Shown piece by piece: positions 3,007 to 30,198 of a stretch of 50,952 bases of DNA. Where the stretch lies: contig CAADYN010000127.1 in the NCBI GenBank assembly GCA_900753285.1, positions 1-50,952 on the forward strand, written 5' to 3'. The notes below the pieces were generated by a model that made no database searches, was not told the DNA's origin, and was given only the letters and a program-made list of their open reading frames with translations. The DNA is from Clostridia bacterium (GTDB taxonomy: Bacteria; Bacillota; Clostridia; Oscillospirales; CAG-272). The position numbers and the translations under genes are program-made. Numbering within the stretch: position 1 is the first letter of the stretch; the number at the start of each line of letters is the position of its first letter.

Positions 3007-3020
3007 TTGTGTAGCAGTTT

Positions 3021-3374: not shown

Positions 3375-3384
3375 GATGTCTTAC

Positions 3385-3435
3385 CAAGCACTGAATTTGG
3401 TTAGCCAAATTCGCTTGTTAGGGGTCAGCCCCTAA
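3385..3435 (+). promoter_or_regulatory. Candidate oriT: two adjacent inverted repeats upstream of mobC and the relaxase
   Basis: IR1 is 3385-3417 (GAATTTGG/CCAAATTC core, extended by CAAGC/GCTTG). IR2 is 3418-3435 (TTAGGGG-TCAG-CCCCTAA). The position matches where oriT usually lies. Confidence 0.3.
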
Positions 3436-3465
3436 TACCCCGTGAGAACAGAAAGGAGTTTAAAA

Positions 3466-3618
3466 ATGAGTGAGTTCTTATTTTTCATTATTGGCACAAT
3501 GCTCGGCGGTCTGTTCGGTGTTGCGTGTATGTGTTGCTTGCAGATAAGCAGACTTTCCGAGAGAAAGGAAGTGGACAATGCGAAAAAGAAATGTGCAGAT
3601 ACTTTTCCGTCTGACTGA
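3466..3618 (+). CDS. Small membrane protein (DUF3789-like), 50 aa, not in the ORF track
   Basis: ATG 3466 lies 8 nt after AAAGGAG. MSEFLFFIIGTMLGGLFGVACMCCLQISRL... has one TM helix and overlaps the mobC start by 41 nt. It resembles small proteins seen before mobC in related ICEs (from memory). Confidence 0.45.
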   Translation: MSEFLFFIIGTMLGGLFGVACMCCLQISRLSERKEVDNAKKKCADTFPSD

Positions 3619-3907
3619 GGAGGAAGCCGAACACCTTAATGAGCTTGTGCGGAAATCGGGTCGCTCAAAAGAAGCCTTTTTAAGAGAAATGGTAAGGGGC
3701 TATCAGCTCTGCGAAAAGCCCGACCCAGAGTTCTATAAAATGATGCGTGAGCTGTCCGCCATTGGCAACCGTATCAATCAGCTTGCGGTTAAGGCAAACG
3801 CCCTCGGCTTTGTGGATACCCCGATGCTCCGTGAGGAAGCAAGGAAATGGCACGAGTTTCAGATTGACATTCGCAAAAGGTATCTGCTTCCACGCAGGTC
3901 ATCGTAA
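3578..3907 (+). CDS. mobC: MobC-family relaxosome accessory protein (RHH)
   Basis: The segments FRLTEEEAEHLNELVRKSG and GNRINQLAVKAN are typical of MobC. The stop overlaps the relaxase ATG. Confidence 0.8.
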   Translation: MRKRNVQILFRLTEEEAEHLNELVRKSGRSKEAFLREMVRGYQLCEKPDPEFYKMMRELSAIGNRINQLAVKANALGFVDTPMLREEARKWHEFQIDIRKRYLLPRRSS

Positions 3908-5313: not shown

Positions 5314-6067
5314 GGTCGCTGCCAAAATTACAGGTGCAGGTGCGAAGAACATCGCTATCCTGTTGTATTCCATTCTCAAAGAAGAAAAGAAAACCAAAGG
5401 CAAAGCAAGGCTGACGAGTATGCTCCGTTCTGGTAAGGAGCTGAAAGTCTTTACCGTCAAAAACGGCGACTTAAAGAAGTTCACGCAGGAAGCGAAAAAA
5501 TACGGTGTGCTTTACTGTGTCCTCACGGACAGGAAAAACAAAGACCCCAATGCGGAGGTCGATGTCATCGCCCGTGCCGAGGACGCATCGAAAATCAGTC
5601 GTATCGTGGAACGCTTTAATCTTGCTTCGGTGGATACCGCTTCTATTGTGACGGAAGCCGAGAAATCCAAAGATGCAAAGGACGGTCAGCCAGAGCCAGA
5701 TATTGGTGTGCAGGAAAAGGCGGAGAAAGACAAGCTGCTTGACGAGCTTATGGGCAAGCCTGTCCAGAAGGAGGAAAACGCCCCAAACCCCTCGGTGGCA
5801 AAGACAGAAAAATCCCCTCAGTCCGAGCCTACCTTAGAGCAGCCAAAGAAGTCCGCAGAGGGGGCTACTATGACTAAGGAGAAACCTTCTGTCAGAGAGG
5901 AACTGCGGAAAATCAAGGAGAGCCGCAAGGAGCAGGAAGCAGAGATTGGCACTTCCGACCTGGACAAAAGCGGTGCTTCCGACAGGGCGAAAAGTGCTAA
6001 CAGGAAAACGGAGCATAAACAGCCCACAAGAAAGAAAAAGAAACCAAAATCCAAAGAAACGAGGTAA
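5255..6067 (+). CDS. PcfB-family (DUF3801) conjugation protein with a lysine-rich disordered tail
   Basis: EQIVRMSLEGFEVAAKITGAGAKNIA...GVLYCVL is the PcfB signature (from memory). AAGGAG lies upstream. It overlaps the relaxase 3' end. Confidence 0.7.
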   Translation: MNTGGEAAEQIVRMSLEGFEVAAKITGAGAKNIAILLYSILKEEKKTKGKARLTSMLRSGKELKVFTVKNGDLKKFTQEAKKYGVLYCVLTDRKNKDPNAEVDVIARAEDASKISRIVERFNLASVDTASIVTEAEKSKDAKDGQPEPDIGVQEKAEKDKLLDELMGKPVQKEENAPNPSVAKTEKSPQSEPTLEQPKKSAEGATMTKEKPSVREELRKIKESRKEQEAEIGTSDLDKSGASDRAKSANRKTEHKQPTRKKKKPKSKETR

Positions 6068-6073
6068 ACAGCT

Positions 6074-6937
6074 ATGAGTATTTACGATGTATTCAGCGGC
6101 GGCAACAGACCTTTTGATAAAGAGGAATGGGCTGCCGCAAAGCAGGCACAGCGGAAAGAAGCCTATGAGCTGATTGACAATACCTGCTCTGAAATGGTGG
6201 CAAGCGGCGACAGCTTCCGTCAGTATCTTGATGTGCAGGGTCGCTTTGACCGTTACTCCGTGGCTAACGCTATTCTGGTATCAGCACAGATGCCCGAAGC
6301 AACGCAGCTTAAAGAGTACAGCAAATGGAAAGCGAACCGTGTCTATGTGAACAAGGACGCACAGAAAATCATTATCCTTGAGCCGAGCAAGGAATACACC
6401 CGTGAGGACGGGACAAAGGGCGTCTCTTACAATGCCAAAGTGGTTTATGATATTTCCGAAACCTCGGCAAAGGACAGGCAGCAGGAACAGGAGCCGAAAT
6501 CCATGCGTGAGCTTGTGTCGGCTCTGATTGATGCAAGCCCTGTACCCTGTGTTCCTGTCGGTGAGCTTGAACTGCCTGCCTATTATGACAGCTCTCAGCA
6601 GACCATTTTTGTCAAGAAGGGGCTTTCCGAGGAAGTGCTGTTCGTGAGTATGGCAAAAGAAGTGTCGGCGGCGGTCTATGACTTTAAGCACAACGAGAGC
6701 CGTGATGCTTCCGATTTCAAATCCTTCTGCGTTGCCTATATGGTAAGCTCCCGTTATGGCGTGGATACCAGAGGTTTTGACTTTTCCAGACTTCCCAGAG
6801 AGTATGCGGAAATGGATACACAGGCATTCAAAGGAGAGCTTGGCACGATGCGTGATGTTCTGGGCGAAATCCAGAGCGATATGTATAAGAGTATGGAGAA
6901 GAACAAGCCTGCAAAGAACAAAGAGCAGGAACGCTAA
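6074..6937 (+). CDS. ArdC-N-like ssDNA-binding domain protein
   Basis: YSVANAILVSAQMPEATQLKEYSKWKANRVYVNKDAQKIIILEP resembles the ArdC_N/DUF1738 block (NxxLL..Q..T...W...G..V.KGEK). Confidence 0.45.
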   Translation: MSIYDVFSGGNRPFDKEEWAAAKQAQRKEAYELIDNTCSEMVASGDSFRQYLDVQGRFDRYSVANAILVSAQMPEATQLKEYSKWKANRVYVNKDAQKIIILEPSKEYTREDGTKGVSYNAKVVYDISETSAKDRQQEQEPKSMRELVSALIDASPVPCVPVGELELPAYYDSSQQTIFVKKGLSEEVLFVSMAKEVSAAVYDFKHNESRDASDFKSFCVAYMVSSRYGVDTRGFDFSRLPREYAEMDTQAFKGELGTMRDVLGEIQSDMYKSMEKNKPAKNKEQER

Positions 6938-6952
6938 TCGGAGGTGCAGACT

Positions 6953-7150
6953 ATGAGAGAGAAACGATACCATATCGCACTTGATAAGTACGATAAGAAT
7001 ATCGTCATCAACGCCTTAAACACCCTGCGTACAAGGCAGTTACAGGAGGAACGCCCCACCGAGCCTGTTGACGAGCTGATAAGCAAGGTGGCACACGCTC
7101 CGACAAAAAAGGTTAAGGTCGTGCATTGCAGGTGCAATGAGGAACGATGA
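6953..7150 (+). CDS. Small hypothetical ICE protein
   Basis: ATG 6953 lies 9 nt after GGAGG. Its end overlaps the T4CP start. Confidence 0.5.
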   Translation: MREKRYHIALDKYDKNIVINALNTLRTRQLQEERPTEPVDELISKVAHAPTKKVKVVHCRCNEER

Positions 7151-8927
7151 CCAGAAAACGAGCCTAATCCTTTCTGTCTGCGGCATACTTCCTGTCGTAT
7201 GGCTTGCCCTGCTGACAGCACCCTATGTCAGCGGTGGTCTTGTAGAGATTATCCGAGGTCTGCCTGTGGCGATGGGCAATCCGTTTGAAATAATGGTATG
7301 TGAGGACAGCGTAAAGACTGTCCTCATTTTTTTACTTGCCTACGCTATGGGCATCGGCGTTTATTTCTCTACACGCAGGAATTACCGCAGGCGTGAGGAA
7401 CACGGCTCTGCGAAATGGGGCAACGCAGGTGCTTTGAATAAGAAGTACCGAGATAAAGACCCGTCAGCTAATAAGCTTTTGACCCAGAATGTCCGTATCG
7501 GGTTGGACGGGAAAAAGCACCGCAGGAATCTGAATATTTTAGTCTGCGGCGGTTCTGGTGCGGGAAAAACGAGGTTTTTCTGCAAGCCAAATGCTATGCA
7601 GTGCAACACATCTTTTGTAATACTCGACCCAAAGGGCGAAATCGTCCGTGACATCGGCGGTCTGTTGGAAAACAAAGGCTATGAGGTGCGTGTGCTTGAC
7701 CTTATCAATATGCACCGCAGCCATTGTTACAATCCCTTTGTCTATCTGCGGAACGATAACGATGTTCAGAGGTTGGTAACAAACTTGTTTAAGGCGACCA
7801 CGCCGAAAGGCTCACAGTCGCAAGACCCGTTCTGGGATACGGCGGCGAGTATGCTGCTTCTGGCTCTGGTGTTCTATCTGAAATATGAAGCACCGCCAGA
7901 CGAACAGAATTTCCCGATGGTTATGGAGCTGCTCCGTGCAGGCGAAGTCCGAGAGGACGATGACAGCTATGTAAGCCCTCTAGACGAGCTGTTTGACCGT
8001 CTGGAAATGGTAAACCCAGAGCATATCGCCCTAAAGTATTACAGGGATTACCACAGTGGTAGTGCAAAGACCTTAAAGAGTATCCAGATAACCCTTGCCG
8101 CAAGGCTTGAAAAATTCAATCTGGAGAGCCTTGCAGGGCTTACTGCCACCGATGAGCTTAACCTGCCAAGTCTGGGCGAAAAGAAGGTCGCTCTGTTCGC
8201 TCTGATACCAGACAACGACACGAGTTTTAACTTCCTTGTCAGTATCCTTTATACCCAACTCTTTCAGCAGCTTTTTTATCTAGCAGACCACAAGTACGGC
8301 GGAAGCCTGCCTGTGCATTGCCATTTCATAATGGACGAATTTGCGAATGTTTCATTGCCCGACGACTTTGATAAAATCCTGTCTGTTATGCGTTCCAGAG
8401 GGGTATCGGTATCCATTATCCTGCAAAATCTGGCACAGCTCAAAGCCCTTTTTGAAAAGCAATGGGAAAGCATTGTCGGCAACTGCGATGAGTTTCTGTA
8501 TCTGGGCGGCAACGAGCAAAGCACCCACAAATATGTGTCAGAGCTTTTGGGCAAGGAAACCATTGATACCAACACCTACGGGAAAAGCTCTGGGCGGAGT
8601 GGTAACTATTCAACAAATTATCAGATTTCGGGGCGTGAGCTGATGACCCCAGACGAAGTGCGTATGCTTGATAACCGTTACGCACTTCTTTTTGTGCGTG
8701 GAGAACGCCCCGTTATGGACTTCAAGTATGACATTTTGAAGCACCCGAATGTGAAGCTGACGGCTGACGGAGGGCAACCGCCGTATATCCACGGAGAGCC
8801 TACGCAGGCTGTCGCAACCCTTGTGTTTGACAGTGATATTCCAGATAACGCCGTGAGCGTGAAAGCTGTCAGCACTTCCTATGAGCTTCTGTCCGATGAG
8901 GACTTGGAAGAAATATTCAATTTATAA
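7137..8927 (+). CDS. virD4: Type IV coupling protein (VirD4/TraG family)
   Basis: Two N-terminal TM helices, Walker A VCGGSGAGKT and Walker B-like HFIMDEFAN. Confidence 0.9.
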   Translation: MRNDDQKTSLILSVCGILPVVWLALLTAPYVSGGLVEIIRGLPVAMGNPFEIMVCEDSVKTVLIFLLAYAMGIGVYFSTRRNYRRREEHGSAKWGNAGALNKKYRDKDPSANKLLTQNVRIGLDGKKHRRNLNILVCGGSGAGKTRFFCKPNAMQCNTSFVILDPKGEIVRDIGGLLENKGYEVRVLDLINMHRSHCYNPFVYLRNDNDVQRLVTNLFKATTPKGSQSQDPFWDTAASMLLLALVFYLKYEAPPDEQNFPMVMELLRAGEVREDDDSYVSPLDELFDRLEMVNPEHIALKYYRDYHSGSAKTLKSIQITLAARLEKFNLESLAGLTATDELNLPSLGEKKVALFALIPDNDTSFNFLVSILYTQLFQQLFYLADHKYGGSLPVHCHFIMDEFANVSLPDDFDKILSVMRSRGVSVSIILQNLAQLKALFEKQWESIVGNCDEFLYLGGNEQSTHKYVSELLGKETIDTNTYGKSSGRSGNYSTNYQISGRELMTPDEVRMLDNRYALLFVRGERPVMDFKYDILKHPNVKLTADGGQPPYIHGEPTQAVATLVFDSDIPDNAVSVKAVSTSYELLSDEDLEEIFNL

Positions 8928-8941
8928 GGAGGATTTACCCT

Positions 8942-9298
8942 ATGAAACTTTTTAAGAAGAACGAGAACAAGAAAACCACGAAGCTGCCGATGACTAAAAA
9001 GGTTAAGAAAGGCTTCCGCTATTACTGTATGGCTGTTATGGCAATGACCTTTGTGCTTGGTACTTCCGTAACCGCCTTTGCTGCCAATGACCCCATTCAG
9101 GTAGTCAACAATCTGTCCGATTTCATTTTCGGTCTGGTGAGGGCTGTTGGTATGATTATGCTCGGCTTTGGTATCGTGCAGATTGGTCTTTCCCTCAAAT
9201 CCCATGACCCGTCCCAGAGAGCTAACGGATTTTTGACCCTTGCAGGCGGCGTTGTCATTACCTTCGCAAAAGAAATCTTGACTCTTATCACAGGCTAA
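8942..9298 (+). CDS. Maff2-family small membrane protein (possible VirB2-like component)
   Basis: Signal/TM segment, then two hydrophobic helices (GMIMLGFGIVQIGLSL...GGVVITFAKEIL). Position is between the T4CP and VirB6-like genes. Confidence 0.7.
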   Translation: MKLFKKNENKKTTKLPMTKKVKKGFRYYCMAVMAMTFVLGTSVTAFAANDPIQVVNNLSDFIFGLVRAVGMIMLGFGIVQIGLSLKSHDPSQRANGFLTLAGGVVITFAKEILTLITG

Positions 9299-9318
9299 GA
9301 TAACAGACTGACACAAAA

Positions 9319-9365
9319 AGATAACGGGAGCAGATCCGCCGAGTGCGGAACTGCTCCCGTTATCT
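9319..9365 (+). promoter_or_regulatory. Long perfect hairpin after the Maff2 gene (attenuator or RNA-stability element)
   Basis: AGATAACGGGAGCAG (9319-9333) pairs with CTGCTCCCGTTATCT (9351-9365), with an inner TCCGC/GCGGA stem. No U-tract follows. Confidence 0.5.
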
Positions 9366-9388
9366 AATATCATCAAGGAGGTGGTCAA

Positions 9389-10225
9389 ATGTCTGATAAC
9401 TGGGTGGTACAGAATTTAGAGAACGCCCTAAACACTTGGAATGAGAAATTAGCCGAGATATGGCAGCTCATTACCCAATCCCCAGAGAACTTTAAGGGAG
9501 GCACGATATGGAATGTCATCGTGGATATTCACGGTGCGGTGCAGGCTATTGGACTTGCCCTGCTCGTGCTGTTCTTTGTTGTGGGTGTGATGCGTACCTG
9601 CGGAAATTTTGCAGAAGTCAAGCGACCAGAGCAGGCTTTGAAGCTGTTTATCCGCTTTGCCATTGCCAAAGGTGCAGTGACCTACGGATTAGAACTGATG
9701 ATGGCACTGTTTAAGATTGTGCAGGGTATGATTTCCACGATTATGAATGCCGCAGGATTTGGCTCGGCACAGCAGACGGTGTTGCCGCAGGAAATCGTGA
9801 CAGCCGTTGAAGATTGCGGATTTTTTGAGAGTATCCCGCTATGGGCGGTCACGCTGATAGGCGGACTGTTTATTACGGTGCTGTCATTCATAATGATTAT
9901 GTCGGTATATGGCAGGTTTTTCAAGCTGTATATCTATACTGCCATAGCACCCGTACCCCTTTCCGCTTTTGCGGGAGAGCCGAGCCAAAGCGTCGGCAAG
10001 AGCTTCATTAAGAGCTATGCCGCTGTATGCCTTGAAGGTGCGGTTATCGTGCTTGCCTGCATTATCTTTTCCCTATTTGCTTCTTCTCCGCCTGTGGTCA
10101 ATCCCGATGCGGCGGCGGTTACAATGGTATGGAGCTATATCGGGGAGCTTGTGTTCAATATGCTCGTCCTTGTCGGTGCGGTCAAAATGGCAGACCGTGT
10201 TGTAAGAGAAATGATGGGCTTGTAA
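9389..10225 (+). CDS. VirB6/TrbL-like polytopic T4SS membrane protein
   Basis: At least five predicted TM helices. Position is immediately upstream of PrgI and VirB4. Confidence 0.7.
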   Translation: MSDNWVVQNLENALNTWNEKLAEIWQLITQSPENFKGGTIWNVIVDIHGAVQAIGLALLVLFFVVGVMRTCGNFAEVKRPEQALKLFIRFAIAKGAVTYGLELMMALFKIVQGMISTIMNAAGFGSAQQTVLPQEIVTAVEDCGFFESIPLWAVTLIGGLFITVLSFIMIMSVYGRFFKLYIYTAIAPVPLSAFAGEPSQSVGKSFIKSYAAVCLEGAVIVLACIIFSLFASSPPVVNPDAAAVTMVWSYIGELVFNMLVLVGAVKMADRVVREMMGL

Positions 10226-10239
10226 GGGAGGTGCTATGA

Positions 10240-10692
10240 TTGGAAGTAAAGATAAATAAGGAAATCCGTAATTATACGGAGAGTATGTTTTTTGGACTGT
10301 CACTCAGACAGTTCATTTTTTCTGTCCTTGCCTGCGGCGTGGCGATGGGTTTGTATTTTCTTCTCCGTCCACGGTTTGGAACGGAAACCCTCAGTTGGGT
10401 TTGTATCTTAGGTGCGTTCCCCTTTGCGGCAATGGGATTTATCAAATACAACGGTATGACCGCAGAGCAGTTTGTCTGGGCGTGGATTAAATCGGAATTT
10501 CTGATGCCGAAAAAGCTGATGTTCCTGCCAGATAATCTTTATTATGAAACGGTGAAGCCAACCATTGAAGCCTATGAAAAAGGGTTGACGACAGTACGGA
10601 AAAAGCAGAAAGGCAGGACACCAAAACCAAAGAAATCGAAAAAGAAAAAAGCGAAATGCAGCAAGGAGGTAAACAATGCTGAGAACTCTTAA
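10240..10692 (+). CDS. PrgI-family (VirB3-like) T4SS membrane protein
   Basis: TTG start 8 nt after GGGAGG. MFFGLSLRQFIF plus two TM helices and a lysine-rich tail. The 3' end overlaps the VirB4 start. Confidence 0.7.
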   Translation: MEVKINKEIRNYTESMFFGLSLRQFIFSVLACGVAMGLYFLLRPRFGTETLSWVCILGAFPFAAMGFIKYNGMTAEQFVWAWIKSEFLMPKKLMFLPDNLYYETVKPTIEAYEKGLTTVRKKQKGRTPKPKKSKKKKAKCSKEVNNAENS

Positions 10693-13009
10693 AAATCTGT
10701 TCAAGCAGGACAGGGAAAAGTTTGTTGTGCCGAAGTCGGTACAAAATGTTATCCCGATTAAGACAATCTGGGAGGACGGCATATTTCTTGTAGGCAGGAA
10801 CAAGTACGCAAAGACCTTTAAGTTTGAGGATATAAACTATGCCGTGGCAAGCCGTGAGGATAAGGAAGCAATGTTCCTTGAATACTCGGAGCTTCTTAAT
10901 TCCCTTGACAGCGGTGCGACCACGAAAATCACTATCAACAACCGTCGCTTGAACAAAGCTGATTTTGAACAGACCATTTTAATCCCAATGGCTGATGACG
11001 GTCTGGATAAGTACCGCAAGGAATACAACAAAATGCTTTTGGATAAGGCGACAGGGGCTAATTCCATCGTACAGGATAAGTATGTAACCGTATCTGTCTG
11101 CAAGAAGAATATCGAGGAAGCCCGAAACTACTTTGCCCGTGTGGGTGCTGACCTTATCGCCCACTTTAACCGTCTGGGGTCGAAGTGTGTGGAACTGGAC
11201 GCAGGCGACAAGCTGCGTATCTTCCACGACTTCTACCGTACAGGAGAAGAAACAGCGTTCCACTTCGATATTACCCAGACGATGCGGAAAGGTCACGATT
11301 TCAAGGATTTTATCTGCCCTGATACCTTTGAATTTGAGAGCGACTGCTTCAGAATGGGGGACAGATATGGGCGTGTGATTTTTCTCAGAGAGTATGCGGC
11401 ATATATCAAGGACAGTATGGTGGCGGAGCTTTGTGAGTTGAACAGGAATATGATGCTGTCCGTTGACATTATCCCCGTTCCCACAGATGAAGCCGTGCAG
11501 GAGGTGGAAAACCGTCTGCTTGGTGTGGAAACTAACATTACGAATTGGCAGAGGAAGCAGAACCAGAACAACAATTTTTCAGCCGTTATCCCCTATGATT
11601 TGGAACAGCAGCGAAAGGAAAGTAAGGAATTTCTGGACGATTTGACAACCCGTGACCAGAGAATGATGTTTGCCGTGCTGACGATGGTGCATACGGCTGA
11701 CACCAAAGAGCAGCTCGACAATGATACAGAAGCTCTCTTGACTACCGCAAGAAAGCACTTGTGCCAGTTTGCGGTGCTGAAATATCAACAGATGGACGGA
11801 TTAAATACAGCTCTGCCATTTGGTGTACGGAAGATAGATGCCCTGCGTACCCTCACAACAGAGAGCCTTGCAGTGTTTATACCGTTCCGTGTGCAGGAAA
11901 TTTACCACGAAAACGGTGTGTATTACGGTCAGAATGTCATCAGCAAAAATATGATTATTGCCAACCGCAGGCAGCTCCTTAACGGCAATTCCTTTATTCT
12001 CGGTGTGTCAGGTGCAGGAAAATCTTTTACCGCAAAGGAAGAAATGACGAATATCATTCTGACCGACCCTAATGCCGATATAATCATCATTGACCCAGAG
12101 CGTGAATATTCCCCGCTTGTTAAAGCAATGCAGGGAGAGGTTATTCATTTCTCTGCGACAAGTGAAAATCACATCAATGCTATGGATATGAACTCCGATT
12201 ATGGTGACGGTGCAAACCCTGTCATTCTGAAATCGGAGTTTATTTTATCCCTTTGCGAACAGCTCATCGGCGGCACGAACTTGGGAGCAAAGCAGAAATC
12301 CATTATTGACCGATGTACGGCAAGCGTGTACCGCTACTATCAGCAGGGCAACTATATGGGAACGCCGCCAACCTTGCAGGACTTCCGTGAGGAACTTCTT
12401 AAACAGAACGAACCAGAAGCACAGGAAATCGCCCTTGCTATCGAATTATTTACAGATGGCTCTCTCAACACCTTTGCCAAGCATACCAATGTGGATACCC
12501 ACAGCCGCCTTATCTGCTATGACATTCTGGATTTGGGTAAGCAGTTACAGCCTATCGGTATGCTTGTGGTGCTTGACAGTATCTTAAACCGTATCACGCA
12601 GAACAGAGCCAAAGGCAGAAATACCTTTATTTTCATTGATGAAATCTATTTGCTCTTTCAGCACGAATACTCTGCAAACTTCCTCTTTACCCTCTGGAAG
12701 CGTGTGCGTAAATACGGTGCGTACTGTACGGGTATTACGCAGAATGTAGACGACCTTTTGCAGAGCCATACGGCAAGGACGATGCTTGCTAACAGCGAAT
12801 TTATCATTATGCTTAACCAAGCATCTACGGACAGACTTGAGCTTGCCAAGCTCCTTAATATCTCCGACCTTCAGATGAGTTATATCACGAATGTCGGTGC
12901 AGGACAGGGATTACTCAAAGTTGGCAGCTCCCTTGTGCCGTTTGTAAACAAGTTCCCACGCAATACCGAGCTTTACAAGTTGATGACGACCAAGTTCGGT
13001 GAGGTCTAA
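10676..13009 (+). CDS. virB4: VirB4-family conjugal transfer ATPase
   Basis: Walker A GVSGAGKSF, Walker B TFIFIDEIY, length 777 aa. Confidence 0.9.
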   Translation: MLRTLKNLFKQDREKFVVPKSVQNVIPIKTIWEDGIFLVGRNKYAKTFKFEDINYAVASREDKEAMFLEYSELLNSLDSGATTKITINNRRLNKADFEQTILIPMADDGLDKYRKEYNKMLLDKATGANSIVQDKYVTVSVCKKNIEEARNYFARVGADLIAHFNRLGSKCVELDAGDKLRIFHDFYRTGEETAFHFDITQTMRKGHDFKDFICPDTFEFESDCFRMGDRYGRVIFLREYAAYIKDSMVAELCELNRNMMLSVDIIPVPTDEAVQEVENRLLGVETNITNWQRKQNQNNNFSAVIPYDLEQQRKESKEFLDDLTTRDQRMMFAVLTMVHTADTKEQLDNDTEALLTTARKHLCQFAVLKYQQMDGLNTALPFGVRKIDALRTLTTESLAVFIPFRVQEIYHENGVYYGQNVISKNMIIANRRQLLNGNSFILGVSGAGKSFTAKEEMTNIILTDPNADIIIIDPEREYSPLVKAMQGEVIHFSATSENHINAMDMNSDYGDGANPVILKSEFILSLCEQLIGGTNLGAKQKSIIDRCTASVYRYYQQGNYMGTPPTLQDFREELLKQNEPEAQEIALAIELFTDGSLNTFAKHTNVDTHSRLICYDILDLGKQLQPIGMLVVLDSILNRITQNRAKGRNTFIFIDEIYLLFQHEYSANFLFTLWKRVRKYGAYCTGITQNVDDLLQSHTARTMLANSEFIIMLNQASTDRLELAKLLNISDLQMSYITNVGAGQGLLKVGSSLVPFVNKFPRNTELYKLMTTKFGEV

Positions 13010-13024
13010 GAAAGGAGGTCTTTT

Positions 13025-13429
13025 ATGGCTGATATTAAATTCCGTGATACGGCTCACCGTGATTTCTTTCTGGAAAATATGATGAAATGCAGAGTGAACG
13101 ACTGTTATCACAGGGCATTTTTCTATGTGATGGGTATCGCTTCGGAAACGAGGGCGAACATCAACCAGATGTTCAATTTCAAGGAGGACTGCATCGAGCC
13201 AGAGGGTATGCACGGCGGCTGGCAGACAAGCGGAACAGTCAAGGTCTGCCATCTTGCTTTTAACCTTTGGAACGGGTATGCAGAGGAAGGGCGGGAACGG
13301 TATTTCACGCCAGAGGAGTTGTTTTGCTGTGAGTTTGCTCCCTACTTTATGGAGGGTATCAAGGTCAGATACCCCGAATATTGCAGGGAGCTTCCTGCTC
13401 CCAGAAAACAGACGGAAATTTCAAGATAA
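13025..13429 (+). CDS. Conserved hypothetical ICE protein
   Basis: Good RBS (AAAGGAGG) and compact spacing after virB4. No catalytic motif recognised. Confidence 0.55.
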   Translation: MADIKFRDTAHRDFFLENMMKCRVNDCYHRAFFYVMGIASETRANINQMFNFKEDCIEPEGMHGGWQTSGTVKVCHLAFNLWNGYAEEGRERYFTPEELFCCEFAPYFMEGIKVRYPEYCRELPAPRKQTEISR

Positions 13430-13443
13430 GAAAGGAAAAGCCT

Positions 13444-14217
13444 ATGAAGAATTATAAATCTATTATCTGTGTTGTAGCCGCCGTGTGCCTGTTAGGTACG
13501 GCGGCTTTTTGCGGCTTCCGCATTTATCATTACTATGCAGAGGTGGACGAGCAGACGGAAGCCTTTGAGGAGATTGCCGAGATGGTAGAGCAGGCTCCCA
13601 CGGATGAAACCGTGCCAGACGATGCCCCTGTCAGCGAGGGGGAAGATGTGCTTGCCAAGTATCAGGAATTGTATTTACAGAATGAGGATATGGTCGGTTG
13701 GATTTCCATTGCCGGCACGACAATCAATTATCCTGTGATGCAGAGTGGGAACAATCCGAATTTTTATCTGAAGCACAATTTTGAAAAAGAGTACAGCGAT
13801 TTAGGAACGCCTTATGTGCAGGAGAATTGCGATATTGCTGAAAGTGACAATCTGGTTATCTACGGTCATCACATTAAGGGCGGCAAGATGTTTGGAGCGT
13901 TGGAGGATTACAAGTCCAAGAGCTTTTATGAGGAACACAAGAATATTCAGTTTGATACCCTCACAGAGCAGGCAGAGTATGAAATCGTCGCTGTGTTTAA
14001 GACTGTGGCGTACAGTTCTGAGGGATTCCGATACTACGACTTTGTTGATGCGGAGAATGAGGAAGATTTTAATTCCTATGTCGGGAAGTGCAAGGAGCTT
14101 GCTTTGTATGATACAGGTGTGACCGCTGAATACGGCGACAGGCTCATTACCCTTTCCACCTGCGAATACTCCGCACGGAACGGCAGGCTCGTTGTAGTGG
14201 CAAAAATGGTCGGCTGA
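13444..14217 (+). CDS. srtB: Class B sortase
   Basis: N-terminal TM anchor, TINYPVMQ, VIYGHH (His) and TLSTCEY (catalytic Cys). The internal ATG 13444 was chosen because an RBS precedes it. Confidence 0.8.
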   Translation: MKNYKSIICVVAAVCLLGTAAFCGFRIYHYYAEVDEQTEAFEEIAEMVEQAPTDETVPDDAPVSEGEDVLAKYQELYLQNEDMVGWISIAGTTINYPVMQSGNNPNFYLKHNFEKEYSDLGTPYVQENCDIAESDNLVIYGHHIKGGKMFGALEDYKSKSFYEEHKNIQFDTLTEQAEYEIVAVFKTVAYSSEGFRYYDFVDAENEEDFNSYVGKCKELALYDTGVTAEYGDRLITLSTCEYSARNGRLVVVAKMVG

Positions 14218-14252
14218 TTTGAACGCAAATTCTCTGGGAAAGGAGGTTTTCT

Positions 14253-16028
14253 ATGGCTGATATAAAAACCAGAGATGCGGTCAAAGGCACAATAAAGACC
14301 ATAGATAAAGCCGCCATAGCCAGTGAGCGTATGAAGTCTGCCTATGTGGAGATAAAGGAAAGGGCAGAACAGGGATACTACGCTGACGAAAACTCTGCCA
14401 CAGAATATGCTGCGGATAGGATTTCTTATGCGGCAGACCGTGTAAAGGACGAAGGTATCCACCAGTTCAATAAGCAGGGGCAAAAGGCAGTTAAGACAAC
14501 GCAGGAGAATATCGGTAAGGCAAAAGATAAAATAAGCGATTTCAAGCAAAGTCGGGCTGTCAAAGCCGCAGAACAGAAAGCAATACAGAATATGTCAGAA
14601 CAACACGGCTTGCAGATCCGTCACGGGGTTGCAAGCCGTTCCACTGCATCCGATGTTTCCCAGACAGCAAAATCGCAGTTGATAAAGACCCGACAGCAGG
14701 GGCGAAAAATGATTAAGACCACAGCCCGAAATGCAGAAAAAGCGGTGAAATCAACTGCTAAGGGAACGGTCAAGACTACCGAAAAGGGAATTAAAACCGC
14801 ACAGGCAACTTCTAAGGCGGCAATCAAAACGACGGAAACCTCGGTAAAAACGGCACAGGCAGTGGCAAAGGCGTCTGCGAAAACTGCTCAAAAGGCAGCA
14901 CAGGCGGCAAAAGCCACCGCAAAGGCAACCGCTGAAGCAACAAAATCTACGGTCAGAGCCACCATAGCTGCGGTCAAGGCGATTATTGCAGGAACAAAAG
15001 CTCTGATTTCCGCTTTAATTGCAGGTGGTTGGATTGCAGTTGTGATTATTCTCATTGTTGTCCTGCTCGGCTGTGCTGTTTCCCTGTTTGGTGGCGGAAG
15101 CGGGAGCAACGCCTATACGCCTGTCAGTGCGGAGGTGGAAGCCTACACGCCGCTGATACAGAAGTATGCGAAGCAGTACGGCATCCCCGAATTTGTGGAG
15201 CTTATCAAGGCGGTGATGATGCAGGAAAGCGGCGGGCGTGGGCTTGACCCCATGCAGGCGGCGGAGGGTAGCTTTAACACAAGGTATCCCCACGAGCCGA
15301 ACGGGATACAAGACCCAGAATATTCGATTGAGTGCGGTGTACAGGAATTAAAGGCTGCCCTTATCTCTGCCGAGGTAGAAAACCCGATTGATATGGAGCA
15401 TATCAAACTTGCCTTGCAGGGTTACAATTTCGGCAACGGCTATATCTCGTGGGCTAAGACCAACTATGGCGGCTATTCCTATGCCAATGCGGTAGAGTTC
15501 TCCACCATGCAGGCGGCACGGTTAGGTTGGGACAGCTATGGCGACACGCAATATCCCGCCCATGTGCTGCTGTATTATCCATACGGGAGGGCGTTCACAA
15601 GCGGCGGTAACCAGGCGATTGTGGAGGTCGCTTTGACACAGCTCGGAAATGAGGGCGGTCAGCCTTATTGGAGTTGGTATGGCTTTGATGGGCGTGTGGA
15701 ATGGTGTGCCTGCTTCGTATCGTGGTGTGCCGACCAGTGTGGTTATATCGAAAGCGGGATTATCCAGAAATTCGCAGGCTGCGTGGACGGCTCAAATTGG
15801 TTTAAGGGTAACGGACAATGGAAAGACCGAAGCTATGAGCCGTCGACAGGCGATATTATCTTTTTTGATTGGGAAGGCGACGGAGAAACCGACCATGTAG
15901 GCATTGTGGAGAAATGCGAAAACGGTGTCGTTTACACCGTGGAGGGTAACTCTGGCGACGCTTGCAGGCAAAAGCAATATACGGTTGGAAGCAGCTCCAT
16001 CTATGGCTACGGCGTTCCTGCCTATTAA
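14253..16028 (+). CDS. T4SS-associated cell-wall hydrolase: lysozyme/SLT-like domain plus CHAP/NlpC-P60 domain
   Basis: Low-complexity Lys/Ala-rich N-terminus, a TM helix, MMQESGGRGLDPMQAAE (glycosidase Glu), EWCACFVSWC (CHAP Cys) and DHVGIVE (His). Confidence 0.85.
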   Translation: MADIKTRDAVKGTIKTIDKAAIASERMKSAYVEIKERAEQGYYADENSATEYAADRISYAADRVKDEGIHQFNKQGQKAVKTTQENIGKAKDKISDFKQSRAVKAAEQKAIQNMSEQHGLQIRHGVASRSTASDVSQTAKSQLIKTRQQGRKMIKTTARNAEKAVKSTAKGTVKTTEKGIKTAQATSKAAIKTTETSVKTAQAVAKASAKTAQKAAQAAKATAKATAEATKSTVRATIAAVKAIIAGTKALISALIAGGWIAVVIILIVVLLGCAVSLFGGGSGSNAYTPVSAEVEAYTPLIQKYAKQYGIPEFVELIKAVMMQESGGRGLDPMQAAEGSFNTRYPHEPNGIQDPEYSIECGVQELKAALISAEVENPIDMEHIKLALQGYNFGNGYISWAKTNYGGYSYANAVEFSTMQAARLGWDSYGDTQYPAHVLLYYPYGRAFTSGGNQAIVEVALTQLGNEGGQPYWSWYGFDGRVEWCACFVSWCADQCGYIESGIIQKFAGCVDGSNWFKGNGQWKDRSYEPSTGDIIFFDWEGDGETDHVGIVEKCENGVVYTVEGNSGDACRQKQYTVGSSSIYGYGVPAY

Positions 16029-16054
16029 GAATGGGCAAAAGAAAAACCAGAGGT

Positions 16055-16414
16055 TTATTCCTCTGGCTCTTTTGCCTTACATAGTCCGATAACAGTTGCT
16101 TCTATAACGGACAGTTCTTTATCGTCTAAATTGTCGAGCTGTGCGTCTAAGCGTCTGCGGACGGAACTTTTCTTGACCTCATTATCTGGGAATATGTACT
16201 CGTCAACCGACACATCGAACATCGTAATAAGTTGGATAAATAGCTCGATACTTGGATACTGCCCCTCGTTTTCGATAGACTGAATATGTCTGGGAGCATA
16301 GCCGATTATTCCAGATAGTTGCTCCCTTGTCATCCCTCTGGCTTCACGGGCTTTTTTGATAGCCTGTCCTATCGGAGTAAAATCGAAGTCAAAATTATTG
16401 TTCCTTTCGTCCAT
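16055..16414 (-). CDS. XRE-family helix-turn-helix transcriptional regulator
   Basis: IKKAREARGMTREQLSGIIGYAPRHIQSIENEGQYPSIE is a canonical HTH_3 segment. Confidence 0.85.
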   Translation of the reverse strand: MDERNNNFDFDFTPIGQAIKKAREARGMTREQLSGIIGYAPRHIQSIENEGQYPSIELFIQLITMFDVSVDEYIFPDNEVKKSSVRRRLDAQLDNLDDKELSVIEATVIGLCKAKEPEE

Positions 16415-26772: not shown

Positions 26773-27249
26773 ATGAATGAAAAACATCCTAACCGAAAAA
26801 AGGACAAGCATAACCCTTATACGCTGATGATTGTAGAGGGCAGATATTACCTCTCTTTTAAAGATGGGCGGGGTGTTATGCAAAATATTGAAATAGAGAA
26901 AGTGCTGTATGACCTGTTTAACCGTTTTGAGCTTGAGGATATTTCCTATCTTAATCGGGTGAGCAGGCACATTGAACACTCCGAGTTGACAGAAAACTCC
27001 TTGAATGACCGAGTTTTTTATAAGGAAGAAAGTCTTGAGGAAACCGTTTCAAGGTGCATCGAATACGAACTGCTACATAAGGCAATATCAAAACTGCCCG
27101 AAACACAAAGACGCAGGCTGCTGTTGTACTTTTTCGGAGAGTTGTCCTATGAGCAGATTGCCAAGTTGGAGGGATGCACCAAAATGGCGGTTAAAGGAAG
27201 CGTTGACATTGCACTAAAGAAGTTAAAAAAACTTTTTGAAAAATTTTAA
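26773..27249 (+). CDS. Small sigma-70-family/ECF-like factor (mainly region 4)
   Basis: LPETQRRRLLLYFFGELSYEQIAKLEGCTKMAVKGSVDIALKKLKK is a sigma region-4 HTH. ATG follows GGAGG. Confidence 0.7.
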   Translation: MNEKHPNRKKDKHNPYTLMIVEGRYYLSFKDGRGVMQNIEIEKVLYDLFNRFELEDISYLNRVSRHIEHSELTENSLNDRVFYKEESLEETVSRCIEYELLHKAISKLPETQRRRLLLYFFGELSYEQIAKLEGCTKMAVKGSVDIALKKLKKLFEKF

Positions 27250-27280
27250 TTTTAGCCTATACGAAACCGCTTTTAAGTGA

Positions 27281-27322
27281 GCAAACAGGTGAGAGGGATT
27301 AAATTCCTTCCACCTGTTTTGC
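27281..27322 (+). terminator. Rho-independent terminator after the sigma gene
   Basis: GCAAACAGGTG (27281-27291) pairs with CACCTGTTTTGC (27311-27322), followed by TTTG. Confidence 0.7.
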
Positions 27323-27700
27323 TTTGTGTGGCGAAAACGGGAGTGATCCTTGACAACCGAATATCCATTCGCCAAATACTTCCTCTTTGTGATTGTGATG
27401 AGCATAAGCGTGTGCAGCGGTACGCCAAGACCTGTTAAGAAGCAGCGAGCGATGAAAGGGGGTGATCTCATTCATTACCGACTGAAAATATCGGATTGCT
27501 TCCGATTTCGCCATAACCCACAAAGAGAATAATGGTACTCCCGTCCAGTCACAGTCCGAGCGTGATAAAACCGTCGCAGGCAATGAGGGCGGCTCTGGCA
27601 GACCGTCAGAGGGGTGGAACTCCCGTGGTGTCAGTTCGCTACTGACCGTTTGGCGACTTCCCATAGCATTTCGGGGTGTCGAGGACAAATTGAAATGCTC
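27323..27700 (+). other. GC-rich ORF-free segment with many complementary blocks: candidate structured RNA of unknown class (strand not established)
   Basis: Hand counts give 62% and 60% GC for lines 27541 and 27601, against 28-37% for neighbouring cargo lines. No protein-like ORF is present. See the findings for the helix list. Confidence 0.3.
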
Positions 27701-27839
27701 CTATCATAAAGCCAGATAAAAGGTAGTCATAGGAACAGAGATTTTGTTTATACTCTCCCGACCTTAAATACTTCCTTTTGTTTGGCTGCCTACATAGGCA
27801 GAACATACCTGCCTAAATAAATCTGGGAGGTCAAACATA

Positions 27840-28205
27840 ATGGAAAGAAAAATCAAGCGTGGAGATATTTACTACGCAAATCTAAATCCTGTTATCGGCT
27901 CGGAGCAAGGCGGAACAAGACCTGTACTTATCATTTCAAACGATGTCGGCAATAAGCATAGCCCTACGGTCATTGTCGCACCCATCACAAGCCGAATACA
28001 CACTAAAGCAAAATTGCCGACACACACTTTAATCAATGATTTTGAAGGTTTGGATAAGAACTCAATTATCCTGTTTGAACAAATCCGCACCATAGACAAA
28101 CAACGCCTGCGTAAATATGTTGGTATGCTATCCACAGTCATAATGGCAAGAGCCGATAAAGCTCTTGCCATTAGTATTTCTTTGAGGGAGGTCAATAATG
28201 AATGA
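27840..28205 (+). CDS. mazF: MazF/PemK (EndoA-like) endoribonuclease toxin
   Basis: IKRGDIYYANLNPVIGSEQGGTRPVLIISNDVGNKHSPTVIVAPITS...KLPTHT...IILFEQIRTIDKQRL closely parallels B. subtilis EndoA/NdoA (from memory). GGGAGG RBS upstream. Confidence 0.9.
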   Translation: MERKIKRGDIYYANLNPVIGSEQGGTRPVLIISNDVGNKHSPTVIVAPITSRIHTKAKLPTHTLINDFEGLDKNSIILFEQIRTIDKQRLRKYVGMLSTVIMARADKALAISISLREVNNE

Positions 28206-28335
28206 AATTAAGGTAGATAAAAATGTAGCGGCTCTGAAACTCATTGAGATACTTCTTGAAAAAGGAATGATAAATCAAGCCACATATACAAATATCGTGA
28301 AACACGCAAATTCGCACATTTCACAGGCGGCTTGA
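28198..28335 (+). CDS. 45 aa ORF overlapping the mazF stop. It could be an atypical downstream antitoxin, or a recombinase accessory factor (RDF or TnpW-like).
   Basis: ATG 28198 lies 6 nt after GGGAGG (28186-28191), with an 8 nt overlap with mazF. Sequence MNEIKVDKNVAALKLIEILLEKGMINQATYTNIVKH is SHOCT-like and helical. It is not in the ORF track. Confidence 0.5.
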   Translation: MNEIKVDKNVAALKLIEILLEKGMINQATYTNIVKHANSHISQAA

Positions 28336-28380
28336 TAATCAGTACAATATATTCAGAAAAATGAATTGGAGGTATGCTTA

Positions 28381-30198
28381 ATGAACACAGCAGTAAATGA
28401 ATATAATTACAGATTTAAGCTCACAGATTATTCTCTGTTTGACAGAAACAGAGCCAGAAAAGTTGCTATTTATGGTCGTGTTTCAACAGAACACGAAGCA
28501 CAGTTATCTGCATTGGAAAATCAGTTACAATGGTATGATGACCAAGTAAAATATCATCCGAACTGGACGGTCTGTGAACGATATATTGATGAAGGTATCA
28601 CGGGAACACAGGCAAAAAAACGCCCTGCCTTTTTGAAAATGATTGAAGATGCCAAGCAAGGTAAATTTGATTTAATTGTTACCAGAGAGGTATGCCGTTT
28701 TGCACGAAATGTTGTGGATACCCTTGTTGTTACAAGAGAGTTAAAAGGCATAGGCGTTGAGGTGTTTTTTATCGACGATAATATTTGGACAATGGACGGA
28801 GATGGAGAACTGCGGCTATCTCTTATGGCAACATTGGCACAGGAAGAAAGTCGCAAGACTTCCGAGCGTGTAAAAGCAGGTCAGAAAATCAGCCGTGATA
28901 ATGGTGTTCTCTATGGAAACGGTAATATTTTAGGTTATGACCGTGTTGGAGATACCTATGTTATCAATGAGGAACAGGCAGAAACGGTCAGAATGATATA
29001 TGATTTGTATCTGCAAGGTTATGGCTCGATGAAAATCGCAAAGATTTTGACGGAGCGAAAAAGGAAAACAGCTTCTGGACTTATAAAGTGGAGCGTTTCA
29101 AATATTATGAGAGCGATTAAAAATGCCACTTACAAAGGAACAAAGTGTTACAACAAATCCAGAAGCAATAACTTTTTAGAGCAGAAGCGAATAAACAATC
29201 TTGATATGTCCACTTATGAATATGTTGAGGGTGATTTCCCTTCTATTATTTCTCAAGAGATATGGAATAAAGCACAGGCGATAAGGGAAAGTAGAGTAAA
29301 ACCTGTATGTGTATCGGCAGGGAAAAACACACATAGTAAGCGTGATTCACGAGATATATGGGTCAATAAGCTACGTTGTTCCTGCGGCTCATCATACCGT
29401 AAAAATAAATGGCATACGAAATTGGACGGAAAAACCTCTTACGGTTATCAATGCTACAATCAGCTTAACAACGGAATTAAACGGAAAAGAGCTGAAATCG
29501 GTTTAGATACTGAGGGATATTGTGACAGCAGAATGATAACCGATTGGAAACTCGATTTTATGGCAAAAGCTTTGTTAGAGCATCTCTGGACGGAGAGAAA
29601 AGAGTCTGTACTGATTGCGTTAGACCTTATTAAGTATTATTATAAGGAAGAAAAATCTAACGAAACTCAATCCGATACGGTAACGATACAGGCGAAATTG
29701 GATAAGGCAAATAGCAGACTGACTAACTTGATTGCTATGAGAGCTGATGGAGAGATTTCCAAGGACGAGTATCAAGCAATGAGAAGTCCTGTCGATGAAG
29801 AAATCAAGAAACTTCAAAAAGCACTTGATGAAATTCCACAGGAAAAAAGCAATCCGAAAGGATTGGATATAGAGGGTATCCGTTCCACTCTGAACAGCTT
29901 TATTGATTTTAGTGGTAGCACTATCAGCCACGATGTTGTCAATCAGTTTGTATATCTGATAACACCGACATCGGATACTACATTTGATTGGTATGTTAAT
30001 CTGAATGGGACAGCAGATGTGAAAGCAACCTTTACAGCGGAAGGCAGAAAGAAAAACTGCATTATCAAATTGGAGGAAATCGAAAAGATTTCCTCGGTAC
30101 ATAGGGAAAAGAATGAGGACAATGCTCATTTCATTAAAAACCCCCATATTTTTACCTATCTGCACAGGCTGCCCTCAGATAAGCTCGCGGCAAGCTGA
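28381..30198 (+). CDS. Large serine recombinase (ICE integrase)
   Basis: VAIYGRVSTEHEAQLSALENQ (catalytic Ser), VTREVCRFARN, a recombinase domain, a Cys-rich zinc ribbon (CSCGSSYRKNKW...YQCYNQ) and a coiled-coil C-terminus. ATG follows GGAGG. Confidence 0.9.
   Translation: MNTAVNEYNYRFKLTDYSLFDRNRARKVAIYGRVSTEHEAQLSALENQLQWYDDQVKYHPNWTVCERYIDEGITGTQAKKRPAFLKMIEDAKQGKFDLIVTREVCRFARNVVDTLVVTRELKGIGVEVFFIDDNIWTMDGDGELRLSLMATLAQEESRKTSERVKAGQKISRDNGVLYGNGNILGYDRVGDTYVINEEQAETVRMIYDLYLQGYGSMKIAKILTERKRKTASGLIKWSVSNIMRAIKNATYKGTKCYNKSRSNNFLEQKRINNLDMSTYEYVEGDFPSIISQEIWNKAQAIRESRVKPVCVSAGKNTHSKRDSRDIWVNKLRCSCGSSYRKNKWHTKLDGKTSYGYQCYNQLNNGIKRKRAEIGLDTEGYCDSRMITDWKLDFMAKALLEHLWTERKESVLIALDLIKYYYKEEKSNETQSDTVTIQAKLDKANSRLTNLIAMRADGEISKDEYQAMRSPVDEEIKKLQKALDEIPQEKSNPKGLDIEGIRSTLNSFIDFSGSTISHDVVNQFVYLITPTSDTTFDWYVNLNGTADVKATFTAEGRKKNCIIKLEEIEKISSVHREKNEDNAHFIKNPHIFTYLHRLPSDKLAAS

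Follow-up and report, generated by a model that had tools for sequence, protein, structure and literature searches.

Introduction

The put RNA of phage HK022, the EAR element of Bacillus subtilis and conAn2 of pLS20 are cis-acting structured leaders that are proposed to modify the polymerase transcribing them, and with them long operons, including conjugation operons, are read through terminators (PMC11658703). A further RNA of this kind, the conjugation-associated antitermination RNA (canT), was described by Wirachman & Grossman (PLoS Genet 2024) in the orf8-xis interval of Tn916, an integrative and conjugative element (ICE), in a region of 452 nt (PMC11658703). Here, we analyze a 50,952-nt contig of a Clostridia bacterium (CAADYN010000127.1; hereafter the window, whose positions are used throughout). 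Its segment 27323-27700 lies in the 590-nt spacer between the stop codon of a sigma-factor gene and the start codon of mazF. The original prediction, drawn from the letters of this contig, had proposed that the segment encodes a large structured RNA. Our data suggest, with a probability of about 0.7, that it is a cis-acting processive antiterminator RNA of a Tn1549/Tn916-type ICE, a homologue of Tn916 canT with the Rfam pemK motif as its centre.

In Tn916, canT is required for conjugation and for read-through of the terminators T1, T2 and T3 as well as of heterologous terminators. Its action is processive and limited to cis and to one orientation, and a chromosomal transcription reporter without ICE replication functions suffices for it (PMC11658703). 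Activity is seen with fragments of 341-452 nt and is lost in those of 232-291 nt. Two alleles are of particular use for the comparison below. Counted from the orf8 stop, canT(S3) replaces ATA by TGC at nt 283 and is inactive, and canT(delta162) lacks nt 229-390. A minus-strand frame over canT, 'orf5', has no function as a protein. Neither pemK nor Rfam nor covariation appears in the canT paper, which states that the structure was not pursued (PMC11658703).

The pemK motif was discovered by Weinberg et al. (NAR 2017; PMC5737381), in an article whose main text does not mention it. Rfam files it as RF02913 under 'Cis-reg' and names it after the downstream gene. Since 2017 it has been a candidate cis-regulator with no function assigned. 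Our literature searches on pemK and canT returned no paper linking the pemK motif to canT or to antitermination. The window RNA belongs to a known Rfam family and, judged by homology, to an experimentally characterised class of ICE antiterminators. Three points, all of them computational, go beyond the databases and papers that we searched: the identity of pemK with canT, an architecture of ~350 nt that is backed by covariation and includes a pseudoknot, and a conserved MazF site.

The pemK core and its counterpart in Tn916

Within the segment, cmscan finds RF02913 on the + strand with 52.2 bits (gathering score 34.8; E = 1.7e-8), and the match covers positions 1-61 of the 61 positions of the model. 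The original prediction had matched the segment to no known family and had listed such a hit among the outcomes speaking against it; in this respect it did not stand. No other Rfam family, including riboswitches, T-box, RNase P, tmRNA, group II intron and EAR, reaches the gathering level in a cmscan of the whole window. A permissive cmscan of 27200-27900 (E up to 10) returns pemK plus sub-threshold noise only, and in it the window RNA has no sequence or Rfam similarity to put, EAR or conAn2. The window RNA is also much larger than put, and conAn2 works with a protein partner, none being known for the window RNA.

The match is not peculiar to this contig. Of 18 related mazF loci that were scanned, all but one carry RF02913 on the + strand (17 of 18), and the sole locus without a match (L003) is cut inside the core. 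The window RNA shares with the Rfam family the conserved 5' AUAAUGAUACU, the three hairpins, the occurrence in Bacillota and a pemK/mazF gene downstream; here mazF starts 212 nt past the core, and the related loci come from Clostridia. The model has only 61 positions, whereas the fold in the window is about six times larger and adds helices A, B and C, a 5' domain, hairpin D and a pseudoknot (Table 1).

A distant BLAST search of the spacer against plasmids recovers the ~100-nt core only. It places the core in Tn916/Tn925 on pCF10 (locus L001), a vanB Tn1549-like element, a Tn5397-like element and a Vescimonas replicon; a fifth locus, on a Subdoligranulum plasmid (L083), is unannotated. In all four annotated loci the core is preceded by a sigma-70-family gene and a helix-turn-helix (HTH) gene, and three of these cores are followed by xis-int, tndX or TnpW-type genes.

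The coordinates in Tn916/Tn925 allow a direct comparison with the canT mutants. The pemK match lies at 4001-4101 of L001, between orf8 and xis. As orf8 ends at 3718, nt 283 after its stop is position 4001, which reads ATA and is the first base of the pemK match. The canT(S3) mutation therefore alters Rfam model positions 1-3. This triplet is also the in-frame codon 65 (TAT, Tyr) of the 83-codon minus-strand orf5 (L001 3944-4195), an independent agreement with the reason that the paper gives for constructing S3 (PMC11658703). canT(delta162) corresponds to L001 3947-4108 and removes the whole pemK motif. The core of Tn916 is 81% identical to that of the window by BLAST, the P1 insert is near-identical, and the nucleotides equivalent to those changed in canT(S3) are present in the window as AUA.

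Outside the core, Tn916-type sequences were misaligned in our large alignment, and they were replaced by anchored duplex searches. In Tn916, the Tn1549-like element and the Vescimonas replicon, these searches recover helices B and C and hairpin D at equivalent positions and with unrelated sequences. In Tn916, CGAUAAGAA and UUCUUAUCG form helix C in the same place, AGUAAUCGAAUA and UGUUCGAUUGCU form helix B as a 12-bp duplex, and hairpin D reads AGCUUU...AAAGCU. No clean helices B and C were obtained for the Tn5397-like locus in this search. The helices and the hairpin are thus kept by compensatory changes around a core that retains the S3 AUA.

The setting is also alike. Both RNAs lie in the regulatory module of an ICE, after an orf7-like sigma gene and before the recombination genes, and they have the same transcriptional orientation. 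Their sizes are similar (a 452-nt fragment for canT, ~350-470 nt in the window). In other respects they differ. Tn916 has orf8 between the sigma gene and the RNA, whereas the window has no orf8 homologue and its RNA is preceded by a terminator-like hairpin. Helix A and a pseudoknot with a near-invariant loop are present in the window and were not found in Tn916. The window RNA is followed by a UACAUA site and an antitoxin-less mazF, in place of the xis-int of Tn916. Finally, the ICE in the window has a large serine recombinase and a Tn1549-type (MOBP) set of transfer genes.

In public records, protein genes are annotated across this core. In the Vescimonas locus (L002 4006-4353) it is covered by a 115-aa 'TnpW family protein', and in Tn916/Tn925 (L001 3944-4195) by a minus-strand 'hypothetical protein', which is orf5. 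Both are probably mis-calls over a non-coding RNA.

Fold of the whole RNA

Relatives were collected in two ways, and only these two recovered the full-length element. With MazF as the anchor and a single genome for each species, 17 loci were obtained whose ~550-nt spacer aligns in full or in part at 76-97% identity; L023 and L028, which are more distant, align piecewise at 67-74%. A pattern scan with the 18-nt GGGGYGTCGRGGACAAAT (27673-27690) then gave more than 200 further stretches from metagenomes and IMG/VR, which were reduced to 104 representatives of less than 96% identity. The pattern was allowed to vary at exactly the two loop positions seen to vary in the MazF-anchored loci. The consensus fold was computed with RNAalifold on 17 sequences, and pairs were counted on an alignment of 103 sequences; alignments were made with mafft L-INS-i and align_dna.

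The thermodynamics of the single sequence are not informative. The + strand folds with -113 kcal/mol (z = -1.40), 7 of 100 shuffles fold as well, and the - strand has z = +0.31. Single-sequence folding is therefore not beyond chance, and the case for structure is one of covariation. Across the 103 sequences, 87.8% of the pair cells are paired, compared with 75.3% in shuffles and 38-48% in controls with slid partners. There are 965 compensatory cells against 302 in shuffles, and the covariation score is 0.320 against 0.151, a value reached by none of 500 shuffles. The original prediction had asked for covariation in homologous spacers as a check of a folded RNA, and the check was positive. G-U cells (900) far outnumber A-C cells (206), and the pairing of 87.8% on the + strand drops to 77.9% when the - strand is read. 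The G-U excess assigns the RNA to the + strand, which matches the orientation of canT and is the direction in which the flanking genes are read.

These counts bear on two other explanations of the segment. One is a decayed protein-coding gene, or a GC-rich spacer without function that arose by chance. A mechanical 129-aa ORF does exist on the minus strand (27299-27688 in the ORF list), and the modest folding z of -1.4 would suit a chance spacer. Among 17 homologues, however, the longest stop-free stretch switches strand and frame; therefore no reading frame is conserved over the RNA. Together with the Rfam match at gathering level, the hundreds of compensatory changes across the 103 sequences refute this explanation, and we regard it as next to impossible.

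The other explanation is that the element acts as single-stranded DNA, for example as a single-strand origin (sso) after conjugative transfer or rolling-circle replication. Such origins are locally GC-rich, strand-specific and helix-dense, as this region is, Tn916 replicates by rolling circle and has an sso (PMC11658703), and covariation cannot separate RNA from single-stranded DNA (PMC5737381). In Tn916, however, sso916 was mapped apart from canT, and canT acts in a transcription reporter without ICE replication and in one transcribed orientation only (PMC11658703). Moreover, the window element has pairs at fixed positions that are mostly G-U, as is typical of RNA. Origins of the ssoA type have a long hairpin in the displaced strand that carries conserved RSB and CS-6 (TAGCGT) elements. 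A single CS-6-like sequence occurs here, a minus-strand TAGCGA in the hairpin-D loop, and relatives do not keep it; CS-6 was the one such element checked. A role as DNA is very improbable.

The data describe a single nested fold plus one pseudoknot. In seeing a large structured non-coding element on an ICE, the original prediction was right. Compensatory changes affect most or all pairs in each of helices B and C, P1, P2, hairpin D and the hairpin within the helix-C domain, and the three pemK hairpins P1, P2 and P3 all covary. Helix F is the best supported of all, with 88.8% of its cells paired compared with 52% in shuffles and a covariation score of 0.767 compared with 0.189. Because helix F crosses helices A and E, the 3' domain is a pseudoknot. 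Of the 19 loci collected through MazF, 13 have the same 18-nt loop in this domain, five have one change and one has two, and the variation is confined to two positions. The 18-mer is matched exactly in more than 200 public stretches, where its invariance follows from the construction of the search pattern. In addition, a structured tail on the 3' side of the RNA reaches to ~27815.

Some parts of the fold are weaker. About 87% of the cells of helix A are paired, and its changes are nearly all one-sided (C-G to U-G, U-A to U-G). This helix is plausible but unproven, given these one-sided changes and a 3' strand that is fixed by the search pattern. The hairpin at 27408-25 keeps its two outer pairs only, and that at 27432-45 is weak. 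A TTGACA within helix A (27350-55) was considered as a -35 box and rejected, since the covarying helices B and C downstream of it must be transcribed and the -10 box is poor.

The complementary blocks named by the original prediction are all present where it had placed them, and several are part of the fold. Its 9-bp long-range pair is helix C, and its three local hairpins (27490-27506, 27630-27646 and 27665-27699) covary as the hairpin of the helix-C domain, hairpin D and helix F. The alternative pairings fared differently. TGGCGAAA (27329-36) was proposed to pair with either 27368-74 or 27506-13, and neither pairing is kept in relatives, where 27369-27377 instead pairs with 27648-27656 in helix B. 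CGGGAGT (27338-44) was proposed to pair with ACTCCCG at 27537-43 or 27619-25; this is likewise not kept, and of the two ACTCCCG copies one forms the 5' strand of P1 and the other the 3' strand of P3. What was read at the time as mutually exclusive partners, the signature of a ribo-regulator, is chance complementarity, and the comparative data give one fold.

Table 1. Features of the RNA and its surroundings in the window
Feature	Coordinates	Strand	Description or basis
Transfer genes	2020-16028	+	primase-like, NikA-like, MOBP relaxase, VirD4-type coupling protein, PrgI, VirB4-like ATPase, sortase, lysozyme/CHAP
Sigma-70 region-4 protein, 163 aa	26758-27249	+	Pfam Sigma70_r4_2, E = 9.5e-11; counterpart of Tn916 orf7
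Strong hairpin with U-run between sigma gene and RNA	27281-27326	+	terminator-like; terminator scan
Whole conserved structured RNA, 353 nt	27347-27699	+	pemK motif at centre; RNAalifold n=17, pair counts n=103
Helix A, UCCUUGA with UCGAGGA	27347-27353 with 27679-27685	+	plausible; closes the whole domain; 3' strand inside the invariant loop
Helix B	27369-27377 with 27648-27656	+	8/9 pairs compensatory; ~92% of cells paired
Helix C, CUCUUUGUG with CACAAAGAG	27383-27391 with 27519-27527	+	9/9 pairs compensatory; 92.3% of cells paired
Hairpin inside helix-C domain	27490-27506	+	6/6 pairs compensatory; 92.1% of cells paired
RF02913 pemK RNA core	27529-27628	+	cmscan; junction AUAAUGGUACU (27529-27539), hairpins P1 (37-nt insert), P2, P3
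AUA, equivalent of nucleotides mutated in canT(S3)	27529-27531	+	Rfam model positions 1-3
pemK P1	27541-46 with 27587-92, plus extensions	+	covariation
pemK P2	27595-99 with 27605-09	+	covariation
pemK P3	27611-14 with 27621-24	+	covariation
Hairpin D, directly 3' of pemK core	27630-27646	+	7/7 pairs compensatory; 92.4% of cells paired
3' pseudoknot domain	27659-27699	+	helices E and F; 18-nt loop GGGGUGUCGAGGACAAAU at 27673-27690
Helix E	27659-62 with 27673-76	+	part of 3' pseudoknot domain
Helix F	27665-72 with 27692-99	+	8/8 pairs compensatory
Long hairpin in 3' tail	27710-27727 with 27770-27787	+	RNAalifold, 19 clade sequences; clade-level support
UACAUA, strict Bacillota MazF cut site	27791-27796	+	between RNA and mazF ribosome-binding site; hexamer count
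MazF/PemK toxin gene, no adjoining antitoxin gene	27840-28205	+	Pfam PemK_toxin, E = 8.4e-37
Terminator-like 13-bp hairpin with U-rich tail, inside 3' end of mazF	28141-28173	+	consensus scan only
Large serine recombinase, right end of ICE	28366-30198	+	Pfam Resolvase + Recombinase

A model for antitermination

According to our model, transcription would arrive on the + strand from the side of the sigma gene. The ~350-nt RNA would then fold into the nested helices A, B and C, the 5' domain, the three-hairpin pemK core and hairpin D, and the 3' pseudoknot would present the 18-nt loop, which is near-invariant where variation is possible. The nascent RNA would stay bound to its own polymerase and make it resistant to terminators, as proposed for canT. 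Such a polymerase would run through mazF and the serine-recombinase gene and, after excision of the ICE, transcripts extending beyond the recombinase gene would pass the circular junction and enter the ~14-kb transfer operon, as in Tn916. The terminator-like hairpin in the 3' end of mazF is a candidate first obstacle on this path. A supported fold of ~350 nt fits the Tn916 deletion series, in which fragments of at least 341 nt are active and those of at most 291 nt are inactive. Antitermination by the window copy, its binding to RNA polymerase and the overriding of terminators are all predicted from homology to canT.

The genes around the RNA are consistent with a role for the element as a whole. 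Neighbours were assigned by crude ORF calls on representatives that are still related to each other, so the proportions are rough. The nearest upstream ORF carries Sigma70_r4_2 in 44 of 86 representatives, and other HTH domains are found in ~12 more. Downstream, a MazF homologue comes first in 70 of 97 representatives, the rest being ParA-like, ParB-like, a serine recombinase or other proteins. Since the downstream genes vary between xis-int, tndX, mazF, parA-like and ParB-like genes, the RNA belongs to the regulatory module of the ICE and not to one gene.

Several points weigh against this model. The antitermination experiments concern canT of Tn916, and the mazF-linked subfamily that includes the window copy is known from sequence alone. 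The 3' pseudoknot with its invariant loop was not found in Tn916 canT by anchored searches; the window RNA therefore represents a subfamily with an extra 3' domain, whose mechanism may not match that of canT in every detail. We could place no promoter in the stretch from the terminator-like hairpin at 27281-27326 to helix A. To reach the RNA, polymerase would have to read through the hairpin or start at a promoter that escaped recognition, possibly one served by the sigma factor of the ICE itself. The candidate + strand terminators on the path (28141-28173, 7300-7327, 10293-10315 and 16047-16066) are consensus matches only, and a T1-like insulator terminator would be expected at the left end of the ICE, which is outside the window. 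Finally, the strong tie of the subfamily to mazF (the 70 of 97 representatives above) hints at a role related to the toxin. So does the distribution of MazE over the mazF loci examined: loci with the RNA lack a MazE gene, and loci with MazE lack the RNA.

By this comparison the pemK motif and canT are the same element, which would give the motif a function, and the comparative data give canT-type RNAs, whose structure the canT authors could not resolve, a testable secondary structure. If the model holds, processive antitermination would extend from Tn916 to Tn1549-like and serine-recombinase ICEs of gut Clostridia, which are carriers of resistance genes.

The mazF gene and the UACAUA site

The link to a toxin was unexpected: an exact MazF cut site is kept just downstream of the RNA, and the first gene is usually an antitoxin-less mazF. 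The absence of an antitoxin had been noted by the original prediction and is borne out, as no MazE-type ORF lies upstream of mazF in the window or in 12 related loci. Conversely, among 20 distant mazF loci the RNA is present in none and a MazE-like ORF in 18. RNA and MazE gene are mutually exclusive among the mazF loci examined.

The cut site itself stands out in the 172 nt past the invariant loop. There TACATA is the most widespread 6-mer, being present in 84 of 104 representatives compared with 6.2 expected, and it is more widespread than the Shine-Dalgarno hexamers. It lies either directly after helix F or ~115-120 nt further on. According to a 2026 preprint, U^ACAUA is the strict 6-nt MazF cut site of B. 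subtilis and L. monocytogenes and is preferred by S. aureus MazF (bioRxiv 10.64898/2026.08.06.743204). In the structured body of the RNA, TACAT occurs about as often as by chance (19 observed, 16.9 expected).

These observations could mean that the RNA is a dedicated cis leader of mazF. It would then act on translation or mRNA stability, or through autoregulation by MazF at UACAUA, in place of an antitoxin and without antitermination in this subfamily. The filing of RF02913 under 'Cis-reg' with the name of the downstream gene fits such a leader, as do the frequency of MazF as the first downstream ORF, the exchange of RNA for MazE between the clade and the distant loci, and the conservation of UACAUA in the tail. 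A possible pairing of CUCCU (27698-27702) with the mazF Shine-Dalgarno region would fit as well. However, the core with helices B, C and D is also found upstream of xis-int, tndX, parA-like and ParB-like genes without mazF, and in Tn916 the core is the mutated part of a proven antiterminator. UACAUA, too, is found in ParA-linked and ParB-linked members, and 350 nt with a pseudoknot far exceeds what a translational leader needs. We therefore consider a leader dedicated to mazF rather unlikely.

The RNA might alternatively be an antitoxin that neutralises MazF directly, in the manner of type III systems or as a decoy substrate. It shares with type III (ToxI-like) systems that a non-coding RNA stands beside an endoribonuclease toxin gene that has no protein antitoxin, and here the RNA is directly upstream of mazF and a MazF recognition site is kept in the transcript. 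It differs in that the toxin is a MazF of a type II family, that the RNA also occurs free of a toxin, and that it lacks tandem repeats, the defining feature of type III antitoxin RNAs; Tandem Repeats Finder (minimum score 30) reports none in 27200-27900. The MazF site is in the tail and not in the structured body, where its frequency is near chance, and family members occur without an adjoining mazF. No RNA antitoxin for a MazF toxin turned up, although no search aimed at one was made. An RNA antitoxin appears quite improbable.

The original prediction had offered a cis leader, an RNA antitoxin or an independent non-coding RNA. The evidence favours a fourth function, that of a cis-acting processive antiterminator. 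A role related to mazF may accompany it, as the two roles are not exclusive.

UACAUA is also found in members followed by ParA-like or ParB-like genes; therefore it may be read by host MazF as well. A reading of the site as a feature specific to mazF was dropped, as TACAT is present in 20 of 27 members without an adjoining mazF. One speculative use of the site, to which we give little weight, is as a severing point: MazF, made from its own transcript or by the host, would cut the nascent RNA and thereby detach the antiterminator or inactivate the mazF mRNA. If this were true, the RNA antiterminator would be gated by a toxin endoribonuclease, expression of the transfer genes and production of the toxin would be self-limiting and responsive to the activity of host MazF, and the antitoxin-free mazF of the clade would be explained.

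Further observations concern the 3' tail. The long hairpin of the tail has compensatory pairs that include 27718:27779 (AU/GC) and 27719:27778 (CG/AU). UACAUA is at the edge of two competing hairpins, 27786-91/27796-801 and 27795-801/27809-815, which have support at the level of the clade. CUCCU lies directly after helix F and can pair with the mazF Shine-Dalgarno region at 27825-27829, ~125 nt away. This pairing could sequester the ribosome-binding site; in the clade, its changes are all one-sided. On the sense strand of the 14-kb transfer operon (2020-16028), UACAUA is absent, compared with ~3.9 expected and four on the antisense strand. This may reflect avoidance of cleavage by MazF; the numbers are too small to be sure.

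As to MazF itself, many of the homologues 3' of the RNA (L028 3001-3531 and metagenomic relatives) have an extra C-terminal domain of ~60 aa with a CxxC...CxxC arrangement, zinc-ribbon-like and outside the Pfam coverage; the MazF of the window is without it. A 45-aa ORF (28198-28335) overlaps the stop codon of mazF (ATGA) and has a weak match to SHOCT_2 (E = 0.005). It was considered as an antitoxin in reverse order and rejected as a general explanation, since no more than 4 of 67 relatives have a similar ORF after mazF, and what comes next to mazF varies. A second 13-bp terminator-like hairpin lies inside this ORF on the opposite strand (28296-28325, -).

Genomic context

Most of the ICE is in the window, on the + strand, with its left end outside. 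Besides the transfer genes it includes cargo genes and the regulatory module, which reads, on the + strand, KTR protein, sigma, RNA, mazF and the small TnpW-like 45-aa ORF, followed by the serine recombinase.

The GC content of 27323-27700 is 50.8%, compared with 39.6% for the sigma gene, 40.7% for mazF and 38.1% for the tail at 27701-27839. The contrast is local only, as the mean of the whole window is 46.2%. Stretches of 378 nt that are equally or more GC-rich make up 27% of those in the window and 9% of those in the ICE part (1-30200). The segment is a GC-rich island relative to the flanking genes and the tail and is no outlier for the window as a whole; the hand counts of the original prediction are exact (37/60 and 36/60 for the lines at 27541 and 27601; 17/60 and 22/60 for those at 28381 and 27721).

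The terminator-like hairpin between the sigma gene and the RNA lies within the 75 nt upstream of the RNA, which fold with -27.5 kcal/mol (RNAfold). Its stem changes are compensatory in the clade alignment, and 42 of 71 representatives have a comparable T-run hairpin no more than 35 nt from helix A. In some relatives (e.g., L004, L005, L097 and L150) the loop of this hairpin is GAGAGGACAAA, which resembles the invariant helix-F loop GUCGAGGACAAAU and may be a repeated recognition motif.

Tn916 carries a second Rfam match, RF03532 (SQ2397, 'cis-regulator of HTH transcription factor'), between orf9 and orf7 (L001 2552-2781; 229.8 bits), and the window has no counterpart at threshold. Other Rfam matches in the fetched flanks, a c-di-GMP-I riboswitch and a uup RNA (L028 1414-1505; L016 198-245), are unrelated to the element.

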